Assembly (NCBI GenBank): GCA_012519025.1
Contig: JAAYQZ010000086.1
Span: forward strand, 3,447-67,446
Length of the DNA: 64,000 nucleotides
Reading direction: 5' to 3'
From: Bacillota bacterium
GTDB taxonomy: Bacteria > Bacillota > Limnochordia > DTU087
In this document: in pieces, positions 3,281-26,963 of the stretch
Layout of the letters: each line of letters starts with the position of its first letter
Numbering within the stretch: the stretch's first letter is position 1
Notes under the pieces: model-generated
The model's input: the letters and a program-made list of their open reading frames with translations, nothing else
What the model was told of the DNA's origin: nothing
Databases searched by the model: none
Position numbers and translations under genes: made by a program

Positions 3281-4159
3281 ATGCAGGTGCGCTTGGGTGA
3301 TGTCCTTCGGGCACGGGTAAAGGATCTGGGAAAAAGGCAGCAGGTCCCAACTAGCCAAGAAGCAGATATAGTTCGGCAGATCCCGTTAGCAGATATTGAG
3401 GTAAATCCGTTCCAACCGCGGGAAACTTTTAACCAAGAGGCGATCCAGGAGTTGGCCCAGTCTTTAGAGGAGCATGGGTTGATCCAGCCTATAGTGGTCC
3501 GCAGTTGCCCAGAAGGCTACCAACTTGTAGCAGGGGAGAGAAGGGTTAGGGCGGCAGCATATCTTGGGTGGGAAACAATTTCTGCCGTTGTGAGGGAACT
3601 TGATGACGCTGCCAGCGCGCAAATGGCACTGATTGAAAACTTGCAGCGGGAAGACTTGGATTTTTGGGAAGAGGCTTTAGCATATCAACAGCTATTGGAG
3701 CAATTTGGGATGACGCAAGACGAATTGGCGCAAAGCATTGGGAAAAGCCAATCATCAATTGCTAATAAACTTCGCTTGTTGAAACTGAGCCCGAAAGTGA
3801 GAAGCAAGATTTCCCGGGAAATAATGACCGAGCGGCACTGTCGAGCCCTATTGAGACTGGATTCAGAAACCAAACAGCTTGAGGTTATTGAAACTGTGAA
3901 AGCGAAACAGCTGTCTGTTCGGGAAACAGAGGCTTTAATCGGTAAGATGCTCAACGATGATGTGGGAGGCGACACTTCGCAAAAGAGTGAGCAAAAGATC
4001 ACTAAGGTTTGGCGTGATGCCAGGTTGCTGCAAAACAGCGTTAGAGAGTTGGTTAAAGAGATGCGGTCCGGTGGGGTTGAAGTTGAACTAGAAGAGTCGG
4101 TTACTTCCGATTTATTGGAAATGCAGATTACAATTCAACGGCAACAGGTCGAAAAGTGA
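3281..4159 (+). CDS. noc: Nucleoid occlusion protein Noc (ParB-family). The real start may be GTG at 3287
   Basis: ParB N-terminal motifs (IPLADIEVNPFQPR, GERRVRAA) plus an HTH. First ParB paralog after rsmG and upstream of soj-spo0J. Carries its own NBS palindrome internally. Confidence 0.8.
   Translation: MQVRLGDVLRARVKDLGKRQQVPTSQEADIVRQIPLADIEVNPFQPRETFNQEAIQELAQSLEEHGLIQPIVVRSCPEGYQLVAGERRVRAAAYLGWETISAVVRELDDAASAQMALIENLQREDLDFWEEALAYQQLLEQFGMTQDELAQSIGKSQSSIANKLRLLKLSPKVRSKISREIMTERHCRALLRLDSETKQLEVIETVKAKQLSVRETEALIGKMLNDDVGGDTSQKSEQKITKVWRDARLLQNSVRELVKEMRSGGVEVELEESVTSDLLEMQITIQRQQVEK
3814..3827. promoter_or_regulatory. Noc-binding site (NBS), a perfect 14-bp palindrome ATTTCCCGGGAAAT
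   Basis: Exact match to the published B. subtilis NBS consensus. Lies inside the noc coding sequence. Confidence 0.6.
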
Positions 4160-4200: not shown

Positions 4201-4959
4201 TTGGCCGTATGCCTAGCCATTGTCAACCAAAAAGGTGGTGTTGGTAAGAGTACTACTGCAGTAAATCTAGGTGCCTGCTTAGGCGAACTTGGGAAGAAAG
4301 TTCTTCTTGTTGATATCGATCCCCAGGGAAATGCTACCAGTGGAGTTGGGATCGAGAAGAGCCAAGTGGAACGATGCATGTACGACGTGCTTATCGAAGG
4401 CTGTCCCATTGAGGCTGCTGTTCAAAGAACACTTACCCCAGGGTTGGATGCTGTCCCCGCCACGTTGGAACTAGCGGGCGCAGAAATTGAACTAGTAGCA
4501 ACTATGTCCAGAGAGTATAAGTTGAAAAGTGCTTTAGAACCTATACTTGCTAATTATGACTATATTTTAGTGGATGCCCCACCTTCACTGGGGCTTTTGA
4601 CCATCAATGCGCTGTGTGCAGCTACAGCCGCATTAATCCCGATCCAGTGTGAATACTACGCGTTGGAAGGGGTGAGTCAGTTGATGGGAACCGTTGGGCT
4701 TGTAAAGGAGCATCTAAATCCAAATCTCGAAATCTGTGGAATTTTAATGACTATGTACGATGCCCGCACGAATCTGTCCCAGCAGGTAGTAGAAGAAGTG
4801 CAGAAGTTCTTTGGTGATAGGGTGTTTAAAGCTATCATTCCCAGAAACGTGCGTTTGAGTGAGGCACCTAGCCACGGCCAGCCGATCATAATGTATGATG
4901 AACACTGTCGTGGTGCTTCGGCGTATAGAGAGTTAGCTAGGGAGTTGATCGGAGCATGA
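4201..4959 (+). CDS. soj: Chromosome partitioning ATPase Soj/ParA
   Basis: Deviant Walker A motif KGGVGKST. 252 aa. Position between noc and spo0J. Confidence 0.92.
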   Translation: MAVCLAIVNQKGGVGKSTTAVNLGACLGELGKKVLLVDIDPQGNATSGVGIEKSQVERCMYDVLIEGCPIEAAVQRTLTPGLDAVPATLELAGAEIELVATMSREYKLKSALEPILANYDYILVDAPPSLGLLTINALCAATAALIPIQCEYYALEGVSQLMGTVGLVKEHLNPNLEICGILMTMYDARTNLSQQVVEEVQKFFGDRVFKAIIPRNVRLSEAPSHGQPIIMYDEHCRGASAYRELARELIGA

Positions 4960-5813
4960 CAAGACCTGCGTTGGGCCGCGGTTTGAAAGCCCTCATTCCT
5001 CAAATGGAGGAAAGTGGTGACATCGTTCAACAGATCCCTTTGGAGTCCATTGAAACCAATCCTTTCCAGCCCCGGGTTGATTTCAGCGAAGAGGCTCTCA
5101 AGGAACTTGCTGCTTCGATCCGGGAAAAGGGAGTCCTGCAGCCGATTACTGTCAGGCCCCATAAGAACAGATTTCAGTTGGTTGCCGGCGAACGTCGCTG
5201 GCGTGCTTCCAAGGCAGCTGGGCTGACAGAAATTCCAGCACTTGTCAAAGATTTAACAGATCAGCAAATTATGGAGATAGCCCTAATTGAAAATTTACAG
5301 CGGGAAGATTTGAACCCGATTGAGGAAGCCCAGGCGTACGAAACGTTAATTCGGCAATTTAGGCTAACCCAGGAAGAAGTGGCAAGTGCAGTAGGGAAAG
5401 GGCGACCTACAGTTGCCAATCGGATAAGATTGTTGCAGCTGCACGAGGACGTGCAGCAGTGGATTGCAAAAGGGGATTTGAGTGCCGGCCACGGAAAGAT
5501 TCTGGCTGCGTTAGAGAAAGATAGAGCCTGGGAGTTGGCCCAAGTATGTGTTCAAGAATCCTGGTCAGTTCGGCAGCTTGAGGCACACCTTAGTTCTGTA
5601 GGTGCCGAGTCCACAAGTGGCAGGCCCCCCATAAAGAAATCTGGTAGGCGAGATCCATTAATAACGGAAATTGAGGATCAACTGAGGGGCGTGTTTGGTA
5701 CTAAAGTTTTGGTACGGGACAACAAGGGTAAAGGCAAGATTGAAGTTGAATACTACTCCCCGGAAGAACTGAACCGTATTCTGGAAATTATGGGATGCGG
5801 GGTATGGGATTGA
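4956..5813 (+). CDS. spo0J: Chromosome partitioning protein Spo0J/ParB
   Basis: ParB motifs IPLESIETNPFQPR and GERRWRA, plus HTH. ATGA overlap with the soj stop. Confidence 0.9.
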   Translation: MTRPALGRGLKALIPQMEESGDIVQQIPLESIETNPFQPRVDFSEEALKELAASIREKGVLQPITVRPHKNRFQLVAGERRWRASKAAGLTEIPALVKDLTDQQIMEIALIENLQREDLNPIEEAQAYETLIRQFRLTQEEVASAVGKGRPTVANRIRLLQLHEDVQQWIAKGDLSAGHGKILAALEKDRAWELAQVCVQESWSVRQLEAHLSSVGAESTSGRPPIKKSGRRDPLITEIEDQLRGVFGTKVLVRDNKGKGKIEVEYYSPEELNRILEIMGCGVWD

Positions 5814-5829
5814 AGAAAGAGGAACCAGT

Positions 5830-6582
5830 TTGAACGACACCAACTTAAGACGAATGTTGTTGGAATTTAAAGCAGGTGCCATTGATCAAGATGCCGTCAT
5901 TGAATATGTGGAGTCTGGTCTTTATGAAGACGTGGGATTTGCTAAAATTGATCATCACAGGGCAAAACGCAAGGGCTTTCCGGAGGTAATCTATTGTGCA
6001 GGCAAATCCAAGCAGCAAGTAGTGGAGATATTTCAGCGGTTGGCCGATCGCAGTGATAAGGTTCTGGCCACTCGCGCCGATTCCGCTGTCGGTGAAGCGG
6101 TTTGCGAAGCCGTTAAGGATGCAAAGTACCATGAGATTGGGCAATTAATTACTTTGGGATGGTCCAGGAGCGAGCCAGAGGTAGAACAACCCTACATAGC
6201 AGTAATTAGTGCCGGTACTTCAGATTTATCTGTGGCAGAAGAGGCCGCTGTTACAGCGGAAATTATGGGGAGCAAGGTAGTGCGGGTCTATGATGTTGGG
6301 GTAGCCGGCCTACACAGGCTGTTTGGCGAACTGCATAAAATAGAAGATGCTAAGGCCGCTGTAGTTGTGGCTGGAATGGAAGGCGCTCTGGCGAGTGTTA
6401 TCGGCGGTTTAATTCACAGCCCGATTATAGCGGTCCCTACCAGCGTAGGTTATGGAGCTGCTTTAGGAGGGATGGCTGCACTGCTGGGTATGCTCAACAG
6501 CTGCGCACCCGGTGTTACTGTTGTGAACATCGACAACGGGTTTGGGGCGGGGTATAGTGCTCATTTAATCAGCACAGTGTGA
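5830..6582 (+). CDS. larB: LarB-like nickel-pincer cofactor biosynthesis protein (PurE-like P2CMN synthase), TTG start
   Basis: 250 aa. N-terminal LarB-specific region, then a PurE/AIR-carboxylase-like domain (IAVISAGTSDLSVAEEAA..VYDVGVAGLHR, GMEGALASVIGG). Confidence 0.7.
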   Translation: MNDTNLRRMLLEFKAGAIDQDAVIEYVESGLYEDVGFAKIDHHRAKRKGFPEVIYCAGKSKQQVVEIFQRLADRSDKVLATRADSAVGEAVCEAVKDAKYHEIGQLITLGWSRSEPEVEQPYIAVISAGTSDLSVAEEAAVTAEIMGSKVVRVYDVGVAGLHRLFGELHKIEDAKAAVVVAGMEGALASVIGGLIHSPIIAVPTSVGYGAALGGMAALLGMLNSCAPGVTVVNIDNGFGAGYSAHLISTV

Positions 6583-6621
6583 ATTAAATATCAAATTAGG
6601 TGAGAACGTGGACTGAGCTTT

Positions 6622-6651
6622 TAGTTAGTGTTCCACGTGGAACACTAACTA
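6622..6651. promoter_or_regulatory. parS centromere site. Core TGTTCCACGTGGAACA sits inside a perfect 30-bp palindrome
   Basis: TAGTTAGTGTTCCACGTGGAACACTAACTA is its own reverse complement. The 16-bp core matches B. subtilis parS (TGTTCCACGTGAAACA) at 15 of 16 positions. About 0.8 kb downstream of spo0J. Confidence 0.7.
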
Positions 6652-6692
6652 CCGGGTTCTGCAGGACAACATTTAAGTGATCTGTCCCTGCT

Positions 6693-6710
6693 ATGTTCTA
6701 CGTGGAACAT
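6693..6710. promoter_or_regulatory. Second, degenerate parS-like site, core TGTTCTACGTGGAACA
   Basis: ATGTTCTACGTGGAACAT differs from the first site at one core position. Centres are 67 bp apart. Confidence 0.5.
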
Positions 6711-6748
6711 ACGGGTACATAGACTCAAACTACAAGGGAGCGATTGTA

Positions 6749-7948
6749 TTGGTGAACGTTTATATTGACTGTTTTTCAGGAGCCAGTGGAAACATGTTCC
6801 TCGGGGCATTGCTGGACTTAGGCGTTCCCGAGGAAATCTTCCAAGGCGTTATCACCGCTTTGGGTCTGGAAGATGTACACCTGGAAATAACTAGAGTGGC
6901 CAAGCAGGGGATTGCGGCTTGCCATGTCGTTGTCCACCATCCTGAACAGCATGTACACCGCCATTTGCAAGATATAGTTGAGATTATTGAACAAGGGAGT
7001 CTTGAGCCTAAGGTAGCAACACGTGCCATCGCAGTGTTTGAAAGGTTGGCTGAAGCGGAAGCTAAAGCCCACGGTACTACTGTGGATGATGTTCATTTCC
7101 ACGAAGTGGGGGCTGTTGATGCCATTGTCGATATAGTCTGCACTGTGGCTGGGTTTCATCATCTGGGTGCAGAAGAGATACGTTCAAGTCCCGTCCATTT
7201 AGGGACAGGCTTTATAGATGTGGCACACGGCACCATGCCCATACCGGTGCCCGCTACTGTGAATCTACTGAGTGGAGTTCCAACCTATTCCAAGGGGATA
7301 CCCAATGAGTTAGTGACACCTACCGGCGCTGCCCTGTTGACAGAACTTGCTTCCGCTTACGGTCCCATGTCTAGTGGGCGATTAATCAAGGTTGGATATG
7401 GAGCAGGAACAAGAGATTTACCGATACCTAATTTGTTAAGACTAGTGTTGTTCGAACCAATACCTGAAGGCAAAACACTTTGGGACATGGATGAAATAGC
7501 TGTTATGGAATGCTCGATCGATGACCATAACCCTGAATTACTTCCCCCTTTGGCCCAAAGCCTGCTTGATAATGGTGCCCTTGACGTGTATGTGCAAAAT
7601 GCAATCATGAAGGGGGGGCGAGCCGGTGTCGTTTTAACTGTGCTTTCTCCCCTCGAACTGCAAGATGCCCTGGCAAAGCTGATTTTCAAAGAGACCACAA
7701 CACTGGGAATTAGGCTGGAACGCAAAAAACGCTACACACTTCCAAGGGAAATGATTTCAGTTGAGGTTGCCAGCGAAAACATCCAAGTCAAAATAGGAAA
7801 GTTGGGGGAGGATGTTGTGACGGTAGCTCCCGAATACCGGGATTGCTATCAGGTGGCCCAAACTGTGAAACTGCCTGTCCGGGAAGTATACGACCGCGCT
7901 AAAACCGCCGCCCGTGCAGCTTTACAGCTGGGTTCCGCAGCTGTTTAA
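6749..7948 (+). CDS. larC: LarC-like nickel insertase (DUF111 family). The ORF-track start at 6677 is probably too long; TTG/GTG at 6749-6752 precedes the conserved YIDCFSG motif
   Basis: N-terminal VYIDCFSGASGNMFLGALLDLG, typical of the LarC/DUF111 family. About 400 aa. Confidence 0.8.
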   Translation: MVNVYIDCFSGASGNMFLGALLDLGVPEEIFQGVITALGLEDVHLEITRVAKQGIAACHVVVHHPEQHVHRHLQDIVEIIEQGSLEPKVATRAIAVFERLAEAEAKAHGTTVDDVHFHEVGAVDAIVDIVCTVAGFHHLGAEEIRSSPVHLGTGFIDVAHGTMPIPVPATVNLLSGVPTYSKGIPNELVTPTGAALLTELASAYGPMSSGRLIKVGYGAGTRDLPIPNLLRLVLFEPIPEGKTLWDMDEIAVMECSIDDHNPELLPPLAQSLLDNGALDVYVQNAIMKGGRAGVVLTVLSPLELQDALAKLIFKETTTLGIRLERKKRYTLPREMISVEVASENIQVKIGKLGEDVVTVAPEYRDCYQVAQTVKLPVREVYDRAKTAARAALQLGSAAV

Positions 7949-8001
7949 AGGGTTTGGCAAAGCAGAGAAGCAGCCAACTTTTGTTTCTATGCTTTGCCTT
8001 T

Positions 8002-8712
8002 CTATTCAATTTTGGAAGGTGCAACAGGTACTGACTCCCAGCTTCCACTAGAGAAAGGGATGCTTATATGATGTGTCCCTTTGTTTACTGCACAAGGGTA
8101 TAATGTCCTTTGGTACATATAAAGGAGCCCGGCAAGTGCATCGACCATAACCTGTGCCATGCGCATGACAAGACTCAAACGAGTATTTTGTAAAACAAAA
8201 TACTCCATGAACCCACCAACATTGACTACTCCGATCAAATGGCTCGTGCCGACTTCAACCAATTGTTTGTTTACACCGGTGCCGGGTTTGAGGGGTCCTT
8301 CCTTGGCCGTGATGTAGCCGATATTTTCAGATTTCCCTAGACATGCATCCAGAGCCAAAACATAAGAGTGTTGGTGTTTTTGCTGGAGCAATTCGGCGTA
8401 CTTCTCCAGATTTCCGGCATGCACGGGCTGTTCTAATGTGCCCAACACTTGTACTCCCGGTGGCAGTCTGTAGGATTCCAAAAGCTTAGTGCCGACAAGG
8501 GGACCTAGGGAATCGCCGGTGGAGCGATCGGTACCAACGCAAAGAATAACCAGTTGTGCCGGTTTATGCGGTGTGGCCATCAGGGAAAGCTCGGGCACCA
8601 TAAAAGTCCAAAGATCCTGGGCCAGCGTTTCCGGCCCCCTTGCATTGTCTATATGCACCCGCGAAACGTAATCAGGGTTCGTTTGTCCTTGGGAAGCCCA
8701 AGCCTTTGTCAA
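8002..8712 (-). CDS. yyaC: Sporulation protein YyaC (DUF1256 family)
   Basis: Conserved core LVILCVGTDRSTGDSLGPLVGTKL. Lies next to the soj-spo0J region, as in B. subtilis. Confidence 0.75.
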   Translation of the reverse strand: MTKAWASQGQTNPDYVSRVHIDNARGPETLAQDLWTFMVPELSLMATPHKPAQLVILCVGTDRSTGDSLGPLVGTKLLESYRLPPGVQVLGTLEQPVHAGNLEKYAELLQQKHQHSYVLALDACLGKSENIGYITAKEGPLKPGTGVNKQLVEVGTSHLIGVVNVGGFMEYFVLQNTRLSLVMRMAQVMVDALAGLLYMYQRTLYPCAVNKGTHHISIPFSSGSWESVPVAPSKIE

Positions 8713-8823: not shown

Positions 8824-9891
8824 ATGCTGGGTGTATGGTGGTCTTTTGCCGCAGCATACGTAGGGGCAGTTGTGGGGGCGGGGTTTGCATCTGGCCAGGA
8901 ATCGCTGACTTTTTTCGTGGTTTATGGCCACAGTGGCCTGATGGGAATTATACTGGTCTCCGTGGGCTTCATGCTCATGGGCGGCTTTAGCTTCATGTTG
9001 GCACATGCTTTAGGTGATGGCTCATATCGGCGTGTTCTTGAGGTTATCTGTGGAACAGGGTGGGCGAAGTACTACGATATTGTGGTCACCTGCTTTCTTT
9101 TAGCGGGTGTTGGAGTCATGCTGGCCGGTGCTGGATCTTTGATGCAGCAGCAGTGGGGAATTCATCCTCTGGTTGGGATAATTGCTACTGCTTGTTTTAC
9201 TGGTGCAAGCTGCATAAAAGGGGCAAAAGGTGTACTTTTCGTCAATGGTCTGTTGGTTCCAGTCATTTCAGTCTGCGCCATTGTTCTTGGAGTCAATGGC
9301 TTGTTGAAAATCTGGCCTTCTATACGCGCACATGGACTGGTAGTGTTGTGGAAAAGTGCTCCGTCAGCCTTAATCCCCAATTGGTGGCTTTCCGGTTTGA
9401 TATATTTGGCGTATAATTCCATGTTGGGTATTGCTGCTTGTATACCTGTGGCAGCGACGCTGCCCTCAAGGCGTTTCGCCTTTTGGGGCGGCATGGGGGG
9501 TGGACTGCTTCTTGGAATATTACTGCTTACAGGAAGCCTAGCTTTGTGGGGCAGGGGTTCTTCTACAGCAAATTCCCCTATACCCCTTGCCTTAGTAGCT
9601 GACGGCATCCATCCCATTTTCGGCAATGTCTACGGCATTGCTATTTGGTTTGCCATGCTTACTACGGCAGTTACAAATCTATTTGCCGTTGTGCAGCGAT
9701 ATGGGTCGGGGACACAAGCAGCAACTGTGGGGATGTTTTTATCTGTTGGACTGGTTTTGTCCTTAGTAGGGTTCGGGTATTTGATTGGATTGCTTTATCC
9801 CATCTTTGGTTACTTGGGAAGCGTCTATGTAGCAAAGTCTTTGGTATATTTCAGTAAAGATATATTACGCCAAACTAACAGGAGAAAATGA
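8824..9891 (+). CDS. Polytopic membrane protein, YkvI/YyaD-like
   Basis: 355 aa with about 10 predicted TM helices. The position beside yyaC mirrors B. subtilis yyaD. Confidence 0.45.
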   Translation: MLGVWWSFAAAYVGAVVGAGFASGQESLTFFVVYGHSGLMGIILVSVGFMLMGGFSFMLAHALGDGSYRRVLEVICGTGWAKYYDIVVTCFLLAGVGVMLAGAGSLMQQQWGIHPLVGIIATACFTGASCIKGAKGVLFVNGLLVPVISVCAIVLGVNGLLKIWPSIRAHGLVVLWKSAPSALIPNWWLSGLIYLAYNSMLGIAACIPVAATLPSRRFAFWGGMGGGLLLGILLLTGSLALWGRGSSTANSPIPLALVADGIHPIFGNVYGIAIWFAMLTTAVTNLFAVVQRYGSGTQAATVGMFLSVGLVLSLVGFGYLIGLLYPIFGYLGSVYVAKSLVYFSKDILRQTNRRK

Positions 9892-25019: not shown

Positions 25020-25955
25020 ATGGGCAAATGCAAGGAGATGAGGGTGGTGTCGAAAAATTTCAGTGGAGTCCTAAACGGTGCTACCCAAGTTTTTGGGGTG
25101 ATTGGAGATCCTATACGGCACAGCCTTTCACCTGCCATGCAAAATGCGGCTTTAAAGGCCCTTGGGCGGGACTGTGTTTACGTTCCCTTCCGGGTTGAAC
25201 CCCAAAATCTTGAGACATCTCTTGAAGGTCTAAGGGCTTTGAATGTACAGGGCATCAATGTCACCATTCCACACAAGGTAGAGGTTATGAAGTACTTGGA
25301 TAAAATTGATCCAATGGCCAGTTTTGTGGGAGCAGTTAACACCGTATTCAATACAGATGAGGGTTTAGTAGGTTACAATACCGATGGGATCGGCTTCTTG
25401 CGTTCTTTACAGGAGGAAGCCGGTAAAGAACCCCATGGACAAGCAATTACAATACTGGGTGCCGGAGGTGCGGCCCGGGCCATTGGTTTTCAATTGGCTG
25501 CATCCAACGCCAAAACCATAGTTATTGCAAACCGCACTGCGGCTAAGGCGCGGGCTTTAGCTTGTGATATTCGGGTTCATACTCATTGTGAAGTTTTCGG
25601 TGTAGGGCTGCATGAACTTGATCTCCATTTGCCCACAACTGATATACTGATCAACACTACATCCTTGGGTATGTATCCCCACGTGGAATCGTCTCCACCG
25701 GCACAGTTTGCTCTTTTGTCGTGTAAAGCCTTAGTGTGTGACATCGTTTATAATCCCGCAGAAACCCTCTTTTTAAAAAAGGCCAGGGCAGAGGGCCTGG
25801 CCACGTTAACGGGATTGGGTATGTTGGCTTACCAAGGAGCCGCTTCGTTGGAGATTTGGTTGGGCGAACAGGCCCCGGTGGACACGATGAAACTTGTTTT
25901 AGCTCGTCAGCTCGGACACAGTGATGGGGGGTTCCCCCTTGATGCTTTTGATTAA
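25020..25955 (+). CDS. aroE: Shikimate dehydrogenase. The real start may be ATG at about 25041
   Basis: GVIGDPIRHSLSP, NVTIPHK, and an NADP Rossmann motif ILGAGGAARA. Confidence 0.8.
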   Translation: MGKCKEMRVVSKNFSGVLNGATQVFGVIGDPIRHSLSPAMQNAALKALGRDCVYVPFRVEPQNLETSLEGLRALNVQGINVTIPHKVEVMKYLDKIDPMASFVGAVNTVFNTDEGLVGYNTDGIGFLRSLQEEAGKEPHGQAITILGAGGAARAIGFQLAASNAKTIVIANRTAAKARALACDIRVHTHCEVFGVGLHELDLHLPTTDILINTTSLGMYPHVESSPPAQFALLSCKALVCDIVYNPAETLFLKKARAEGLATLTGLGMLAYQGAASLEIWLGEQAPVDTMKLVLARQLGHSDGGFPLDAFD

Positions 25956-26675
25956 GTCTATTGCTGCAGTGATTTTGTGTCTGGGTCCACTTATGGCCAA
26001 ACCTACACTGCCTTCGCTGCCGCTTACGCCCCCGGCAGAAACCTGCACAGCATCTACTTCACAAAGTATGGAAAGGGCATCTACTTCTGTTACAATATGG
26101 GCGCCCACTGCGGGAACCATGCCGCACGGCATGCCAAGACTTTCATCGAAGGCGTTGATGCCGAGGGTTCGAACTGCAGCCTCGACCGAGGGGATCAACT
26201 TTTCCCTTGAGGCAGGCACTATCAGATGGCAGCCCCGAGCATAAACAGCACCAAAGGCGGCACCACAAGTTCCTCCATCGGGCGAACCTACCAAGATACC
26301 TGCCATGCCGCTTGGATCTATAGCATTGGCACCCTTGACAAATACATCGTTGCTTGTAAAATCTTTTAAGATCTGTGGCCAAGGTCTTGAACTCAATTCT
26401 CCGTTTTCGAAACAAATAGGTGTAAGCCTTGTCTCGCTGTCTGTTACTGCATATTTACCGTGGGCAATAATACCCGCCGTATAACGGTAGATATCGAGTG
26501 GTTCACCCAGGACTTCTTCTGCCACATAACCGTTAGTAATACCGGTGGCGATGATTAAGCGTCCTTCGGCACGGGCGTGCTGAACGACTGGTAGAGCCGC
26601 CACAGCTTTGCCGATCAGTCGCTTTCCTTCGGATACGGTAAGGGAAAACAAAGCCTTATGGTCATTTGTTGCCAA
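25899..26675 (-). CDS. Conserved hypothetical protein, 258 aa, glycine-rich. Its 3' end overlaps aroE convergently
   Basis: Long ORF on the minus strand with no internal stops. I cannot assign a family from the sequence. Motifs noted: GANAIDPSGMAGILVGSPDGGTCGAAFGA and VSAGGVSGSEGSVGLAISGP. Confidence 0.5.
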   Translation of the reverse strand: MATNDHKALFSLTVSEGKRLIGKAVAALPVVQHARAEGRLIIATGITNGYVAEEVLGEPLDIYRYTAGIIAHGKYAVTDSETRLTPICFENGELSSRPWPQILKDFTSNDVFVKGANAIDPSGMAGILVGSPDGGTCGAAFGAVYARGCHLIVPASREKLIPSVEAAVRTLGINAFDESLGMPCGMVPAVGAHIVTEVDALSILCEVDAVQVSAGGVSGSEGSVGLAISGPRHKITAAIDLIKSIKGEPPITVSELTS

Positions 26676-26702: not shown

Positions 26703-26963
26703 TTAGTGATCTATTGACTCCAAATATTGTCCGCATATGTGGTTGCCCTGGCGTTGGGTTTGTACGATCAACTCGGTGATTTCCATCTTGAATTGCCGGA
26801 CCAATTCTTCGTCGAAAAGATTGACCTCCAGCATTTTTAAAAGTGCTCCCAGCTGTTGATTTAATTCACGTTGAGTCTCTAAAATTGCCTGCCATTGGGC
26901 TTCCAAGGTAATACTGCCTCCTATATACTTTTGGTGAAACTGATTCCACCGGCTGTTATGCAT
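26703..26963 (-). CDS. Small hypothetical protein, 86 aa, predicted helical. Immediately upstream of the 258-aa gene on the same strand
   Basis: ORF in tandem with 25899..26675. No recognisable family. Confidence 0.3.
   Translation of the reverse strand: MHNSRWNQFHQKYIGGSITLEAQWQAILETQRELNQQLGALLKMLEVNLFDEELVRQFKMEITELIVQTQRQGNHICGQYLESIDH

Follow-up and report, generated by a model that had tools for sequence, protein, structure and literature searches.

In a 64-kb stretch of the genome of an uncultured Bacillota bacterium (the window), the nickel-pincer nucleotide (NPN) pathway genes larB and larC are situated close to the chromosomal origin between spo0J and yyaC (Table 1), with neither larE nor larA in the vicinity. 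The question raised by this locus is whether the NPN pathway is split across the genome or whether LarB and LarC operate in a different cofactor context, both of which had been put forward in the original prediction made for this DNA. The analysis described here indicates that the two are probably functional, canonical larB and larC of the NPN pathway, the genes of which are split across the genome, with LarE presumably encoded elsewhere. There is no positive evidence for a different cofactor context, given that LarB keeps the conserved cysteine and core motifs and that a solved LarC structure can be aligned with LarC from one end to the other, whereas dispersal of the pathway genes over the genome is what would be expected by default. 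Indeed, larB and larC are known genes, already annotated, in a common configuration; the GenBank records for the two proteins (NLK08526.1 in the case of LarC) are exact sequence matches, come from an 84.5-kb contig of a 'Firmicutes bacterium' metagenome-assembled genome and already carry the names LarB and LarC.

The product of larB matches the NCBIfam LarB equivalog model with a score of 294.8 bits against a cut-off of 175 (E 3e-88). The top solved structure is that of the LarB carboxylase/hydrolase, 7MJ0 (E 4.6e-73), which aligns over residues 9-248 of the predicted protein; the LarB-specific N-terminal domain is present, the alignment starting at residue 9. Cys225 pairs with position 221 of 7MJ0, such that the NSC cysteine is kept, and Rankin et al. 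2021 are said to have identified Cys221, in Lactiplantibacillus plantarum numbering, as the active-site cysteine, with a catalytic role. In an alignment of seven LarB sequences, comprising five lineages of the clade described below and two outgroups, 89 positions are invariant, Cys225 among them. The gene has a TTG start codon, 6 nt upstream of which is a ribosome-binding site (RBS), AAAGAGGA, at positions 5816-5823.

The Pfam nickel insertion protein family, PF01969, covers LarC at model positions 1-375 of 375 (459 bits, E 1.7e-137), a full-length match that rules out a protein other than a nickel insertase. Scoring with the NCBIfam LarC models (TIGR00299 and NF052512) gave 214.6 bits with the LarC1 model (cut-off 90) and 125.9 bits with the LarC2 model (cut-off 50). 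Residues 4-390 align with positions 22-410 of the full-length solved LarC structure 12bi (414 aa; E 1.4e-94), the N-terminal DCFSGxSG motif and the HFHEVGAVDAI motif both falling within the alignment, and the LarC2 domain matches structure 6BWO. No difference from the 12bi protein is apparent at the level of sequence. The predicted chemistry is the same as that of the L. plantarum lar operon (larA, larB, larC1/C2, larE), although larC in the window is a single fused open reading frame (ORF) whereas that of L. plantarum is split into larC1 and larC2, which are read through by frameshift. The window genes differ also in being located in the origin and partition region, with no other lar gene nearby, as opposed to within a lactate racemase operon. 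The assignment of the two genes in the original prediction is therefore borne out by the NF033503, PF01969, 7MJ0 and 12bi matches.

The predicted start of larC, at TTG 6749 or GTG 6752, is likewise supported, since both the Pfam and 12bi alignments begin at VYIDCFSG, and an RBS (AAGGGAG) is present at 6734-6740. Public gene calls (NLK08526.1 and those on ENA contigs) start instead at ATG 6794, giving a protein of 384 aa from which 15 conserved residues (6749-6793) are dropped, including the N-terminal VYIDCFSGASGN covered by PF01969 and 12bi. The database LarC start is accordingly 15 residues too short, and its correction represents a small annotation fix.

That the 64 kb encodes neither LarE nor LarA, as originally predicted, was upheld by both motif and profile searches. 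The SGGxD[ST] motif occurs in no plausible ORF of the window, and profile hidden Markov models (HMMs) for LarE and LarA, built respectively from 26 and four sequences drawn from fetched loci (LarA, LarE and LarB of a Staphylococcus locus having been confirmed with NCBIfam), returned best E values of only ∼0.8-1 in an unfiltered search of the ORFs in all six frames of the window. Cofactor users other than LarA exist, namely an aldo-keto reductase (NphT-type) and an ornithine cyclodeaminase (PMC13524815); neither family was found in family scans of the window genes. The other window genes have only housekeeping and sporulation functions in these scans, the families including the glycine cleavage system, pheA, ychF, rpsF-ssb-rpsR, rplI, a Lon-like protease, aroE, ddl, dnaB, rsmA, veg, ispE, glmU, prs, pth, mfd, spoVT, spoIID, yabP/Q and divIC. 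Beyond the 3′ end of the window, a further 5.2 kb is available from a metagenome contig of this organism, in which an ABC transporter and a DUF1854 protein are encoded and no lar gene is present.

The significance of this absence was assessed against 82 independent LarC loci, 43 of which have at least 8 kb on both sides (8-10 kb of flank was examined on each side). The flanks contain larB only in 16 of the 43, larB and larE in 11, and larB, larE and larA in seven, while the remaining nine have none of the three. Thus larE is missing from the flanks in 25 of 43 loci, and the larB-only class, to which the window belongs, is the commonest. The oddity of a missing larE that was implied by the original prediction is not sustained, therefore, because a larC without a nearby larE is found in the majority of cases; larE distant from larC is the norm rather than an anomaly. 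Loci of the Desulfitobacterium type, which are among the nearest LarC sequences outside the clade (47-50% identity), have similarly scattered lar genes: larC is solitary in the complete genome of Desulfitobacterium dichloroeliminans, and a Desulfitobacterium-related metagenomic genome has a larB-larC pair with no larE in 9-10 kb of flank on each side. In contrast to the window, these loci have a haem/isoprenoid gene context and no parS, and larB, where present, overlaps larC by 4 nt. LarB, LarE and LarC constitute one established pathway, and ∼15% of surveyed genomes have larB, larE and larC without larA (PMC11796402).

[quoted passage not shown] LarE supplies two sulfur atoms which, with a ring carbon, bind the nickel inserted by LarC (PMC9283937). 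The user of the cofactor would be a LarA-family or other NPN-dependent enzyme, encoded elsewhere also.

The distribution of the arrangement was examined among LarC homologues, which form a tight clade at 58-100% identity to the window protein, followed by ∼50% for all others, including Desulfitobacterium. Several assemblies of ENA metagenomes, including at least two that are labelled as biogas-fermenter metagenomes, contain the same LarB and LarC sequences. A scan of species-representative genomes with LarC as the query revealed one close relative (L001, LarC 75% identical), the other matches being 34-46% identical and from other phyla; these were used as the background set. The remaining relatives are L098 (76%), L097 (68%), L086/L087 (GCA_012735435.1; 65%) and L088 (58%). 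The order spo0J-larB-spacer-larC is retained in L001, L086/L087, L097 and L098, and the full order, where loci reach, is jag-mnmE-mnmG-mnmG-rsmG-noc-soj-spo0J-larB-spacer-larC-(UPF0180)-yyaC. L088 begins 433 nt upstream of larC, with larB and spo0J outside its readable stretch. The invariant LarB positions, together with intact genes down to 58% LarC identity, argue for purifying selection on larB and larC, and a reading of the pair as a decaying remnant is ruled out, both ORFs being intact and conserved to that depth.

Location of the pair between spo0J and yyaC, and of parS within the larB-larC spacer, were both part of the original prediction and both hold. The spacer contains two parS-like sites, the first of which lies at the centre of a perfect 30-bp palindrome, TAGTTAGTGTTCCACGTGGAACACTAACTA, at 6622-6651, although the extension around the 16-mer is not conserved in relatives. 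When the 64 kb was scanned with up to two mismatches allowed, these two sites were the only ones found, corresponding to four matches versus 0.13 expected by chance (both strands were counted, each palindrome therefore counting twice). The 16-mer of site 1 is present in one to three copies just upstream of larC in L001, L086/L087, L097 and L098, and as a one-base variant in L088, with no further copy elsewhere in any of the five relative loci. The clade spacers vary from ∼140 to 530 bp, and in an alignment of the window spacer with those of three relatives little lines up beyond the parS palindromes and the RBS. The 16-bp palindromes, which match the consensus, lie near parAB and the origin and are kept in relatives, thus have the attributes of parS, and are most simply regarded as predicted origin-proximal ParB loading sites of the clade. 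No parS-like site with one mismatch or fewer is present in 75 other LarC loci (1.29 Mb in total). Since parS is kept in the clade spacers and is lacking in those 75 loci, the spo0J-larB-parS-larC arrangement is an old, clade-specific trait. It would have arisen when, in an ancestor of the clade, which comprises uncultured Bacillota mainly from anaerobic-digester (biogas) samples, the pair became located just downstream of soj-spo0J, with origin-proximal parS sites now occupying the spacer.

With regard to expression, larB is probably co-transcribed with soj-spo0J, judging from the short gap and the lack of an intervening terminator. The spo0J stop codon is 16 nt before the larB start, and the corresponding gap is 19-84 nt in relatives. 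No terminator-like site was found after larB or in the spacer, and Rfam gave no match, whether to a riboswitch or to any other known RNA, for the spacer of either the window or L001. For its part, larC probably has its own RBS and perhaps its own promoter; its transcripts may originate by read-through from larB or at a promoter close to where larB ends. A promoter-like site at 6530-6558, in the 3′ end of larB, has 10 of 12 consensus positions, but is treated only as a hint; promoter and terminator scans gave counts no higher than in shuffled sequence.

Table 1. Coordinates of larB, larC and associated features in the 64-kb window.
Feature	Position	Strand	Description
spo0J/parB	4956..5813	+	ParB_N, HTH_ParB and ParB_C domains; TIGR00180, 201 bits
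larB	5830..6582	+	250 aa; NaAD C5-carboxylase/hydrolase; GenBank NLK08525.1; NF033503 match
larB-larC spacer	6583..6748		166 bp
parS-like site 1	6629..6644		TGTTCCACGTGGAACA; perfect 16-bp palindrome; one mismatch to TGTTNCACGTGAAACA
parS-like site 2	6694..6709		TGTTCTACGTGGAACA; two mismatches to consensus TGTTNCACGTGAAACA; 40 nt upstream of larC start
larC	6749..7948	+	399 aa; CTP-dependent nickel insertase; fused LarC1+LarC2; PF01969, TIGR00299, NF052512
yyaC	8002..8712	-	DUF1256 spore protease; TIGR02841, 187.9 bits; PF06866; downstream of larC, convergent

The persistence of the arrangement could feasibly indicate that the position is functional, with ParB at the parS sites, or the gene dosage that accompanies proximity to the origin, regulating expression of larC or larB. 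The parS sites are always in the spacer, one being located only 40 nt upstream of the larC start in the window, and the arrangement is kept throughout the clade despite divergence of the remaining spacer sequence. Against this, no evidence of regulation was found, the conservation of parS is fully explained by its role in segregation, and none of the other LarC loci has the arrangement, which is accordingly not characteristic of lar genes in general. In Bacillus, ParB complexes on the chromosome are not known to alter the transcription of adjacent genes more than slightly. A regulatory role for the position is considered very unlikely. The placement of the parS cluster inside the larB-larC spacer is a minor clade-specific curiosity.

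Several observations weigh against a canonical pathway split across the genome. No larE was found in ∼69 kb of the organism's genome, or in the 11-21 kb read for each relative, and since the genome is metagenome-assembled even a full search could miss genes. The 166-bp spacer is atypical also: among 43 loci in which larB immediately precedes larC, the two overlap or are separated by 17 nt or fewer in 33, and it does not follow, therefore, that larB and larC are expressed together here. Absence of LarE from the 64 kb, from the 5.2 kb beyond its 3′ end and from the sequence of each of the five relatives might, alternatively, reflect a clade that is without LarE altogether, in which LarB and LarC use a different sulfur donor or make a different pyridinium-nickel cofactor, either non-thio or otherwise modified; NPAD, a pincer cofactor variant in adenine dinucleotide form, was reported recently (PMC13524815). 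However, absence from the neighbourhood is the majority state of ordinary LarC loci, LarB and LarC show no departure from canonical sequences, and LarC acts on the LarE-made bis-thiocarboxylate in the established pathway (PMC9283937). This explanation is judged highly improbable, and scarcely any credence is given to the more specific proposal that the clade lacks LarE and that the conserved larB-larC pair in the ParB/parS locus makes a nickel-pyridinium cofactor via another sulfur donor or none. Finally, the possibility that would have undone the original prediction, in which larB encodes an ordinary PurE and the larC product is no nickel insertase, can be dismissed as negligible: although the C-terminal half of LarB (residues 123-247) matches the Pfam AIR carboxylase domain (AIRC, PurE-like), the purE model TIGR01162 scores only 21.4 bits, far under its cut-off of 149.6 and in contrast to the LarB score, the protein has the N-terminal domain of LarB, and the second protein is matched along its full length by PF01969, such that a PurE-class enzyme is ruled out and the HMM scores come out against this case.

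The wider layout of the locus is that of a Bacillus-type origin-proximal region plus larB and larC between spo0J and yyaC. Upstream, the order is the C-terminal end of one mnmG, a complete second mnmG, rsmG, a Noc-like ParB paralogue, soj and spo0J, which is directly upstream of larB; downstream, yyaC, on the opposite strand, is followed by a predicted membrane protein assigned to no family and then by TPR and VanW proteins. In Bacillus subtilis the origin order is jag-mnmE-mnmG-rsmG-noc-soj-spo0J-yyaC, with parS inside spo0J. The window shares this gene order and the type of parS consensus, but differs in having larB and larC inserted between spo0J and yyaC, in having two tandem mnmG genes, and in having parS in the larB-larC spacer as opposed to within spo0J.

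A number of additional observations were made on the neighbouring genes. The tandem mnmG (gidA) paralogues upstream of rsmG occupy 2-436 and 503-2386 of the window. Both copies are full length in L001 (1474-3348 and 3392-5272), where they share 48% mutual identity, and all clade loci whose sequence extends to this point upstream (L001, L086/L087 and L097) have two copies. Several metagenome contigs of the window organism begin inside the first copy, and only 74 nt of upstream sequence was gained from such contigs, since assemblies are interrupted at the tandem mnmG genes. The ParB paralogue between rsmG and soj (3281-4159) scores 313.5 bits with the Noc model TIGR04285, the cut-off for which is 315, and is without the ParB_C dimerization domain, unlike Spo0J. 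Between larC and yyaC, relatives have a small gene of the UPF0180 family (PF03698; L086 11318-11572, L097 11297-11545 and L098 3919-4197); the larC-yyaC gap in the window (7949-8001) is only 53 nt, and the gene is thus missing in this lineage. The predicted membrane protein encoded next to yyaC (8824-9891; 355 aa), which has no Pfam or NCBIfam family, is kept at the same position in all clade loci that extend past yyaC. Further downstream, two minus-strand ORFs with no Pfam or NCBIfam match (25899-26675, 258 aa, and 26703-26963, 86 aa) are located within an otherwise plus-strand housekeeping stretch, where GC skew falls to 0.02; the former, when read from its first start codon, shares 57 nt with the 3′ end of aroE.

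The nesting of parS between larB and larC across the clade serves as a marker of genome organization and provides a set of predicted ParB sites. With respect to physiology, the organism probably makes NPN, and hence probably has a LarA-family or other nickel-pincer enzyme somewhere in its genome, a point of some slight interest with regard to metabolism in biogas reactors.

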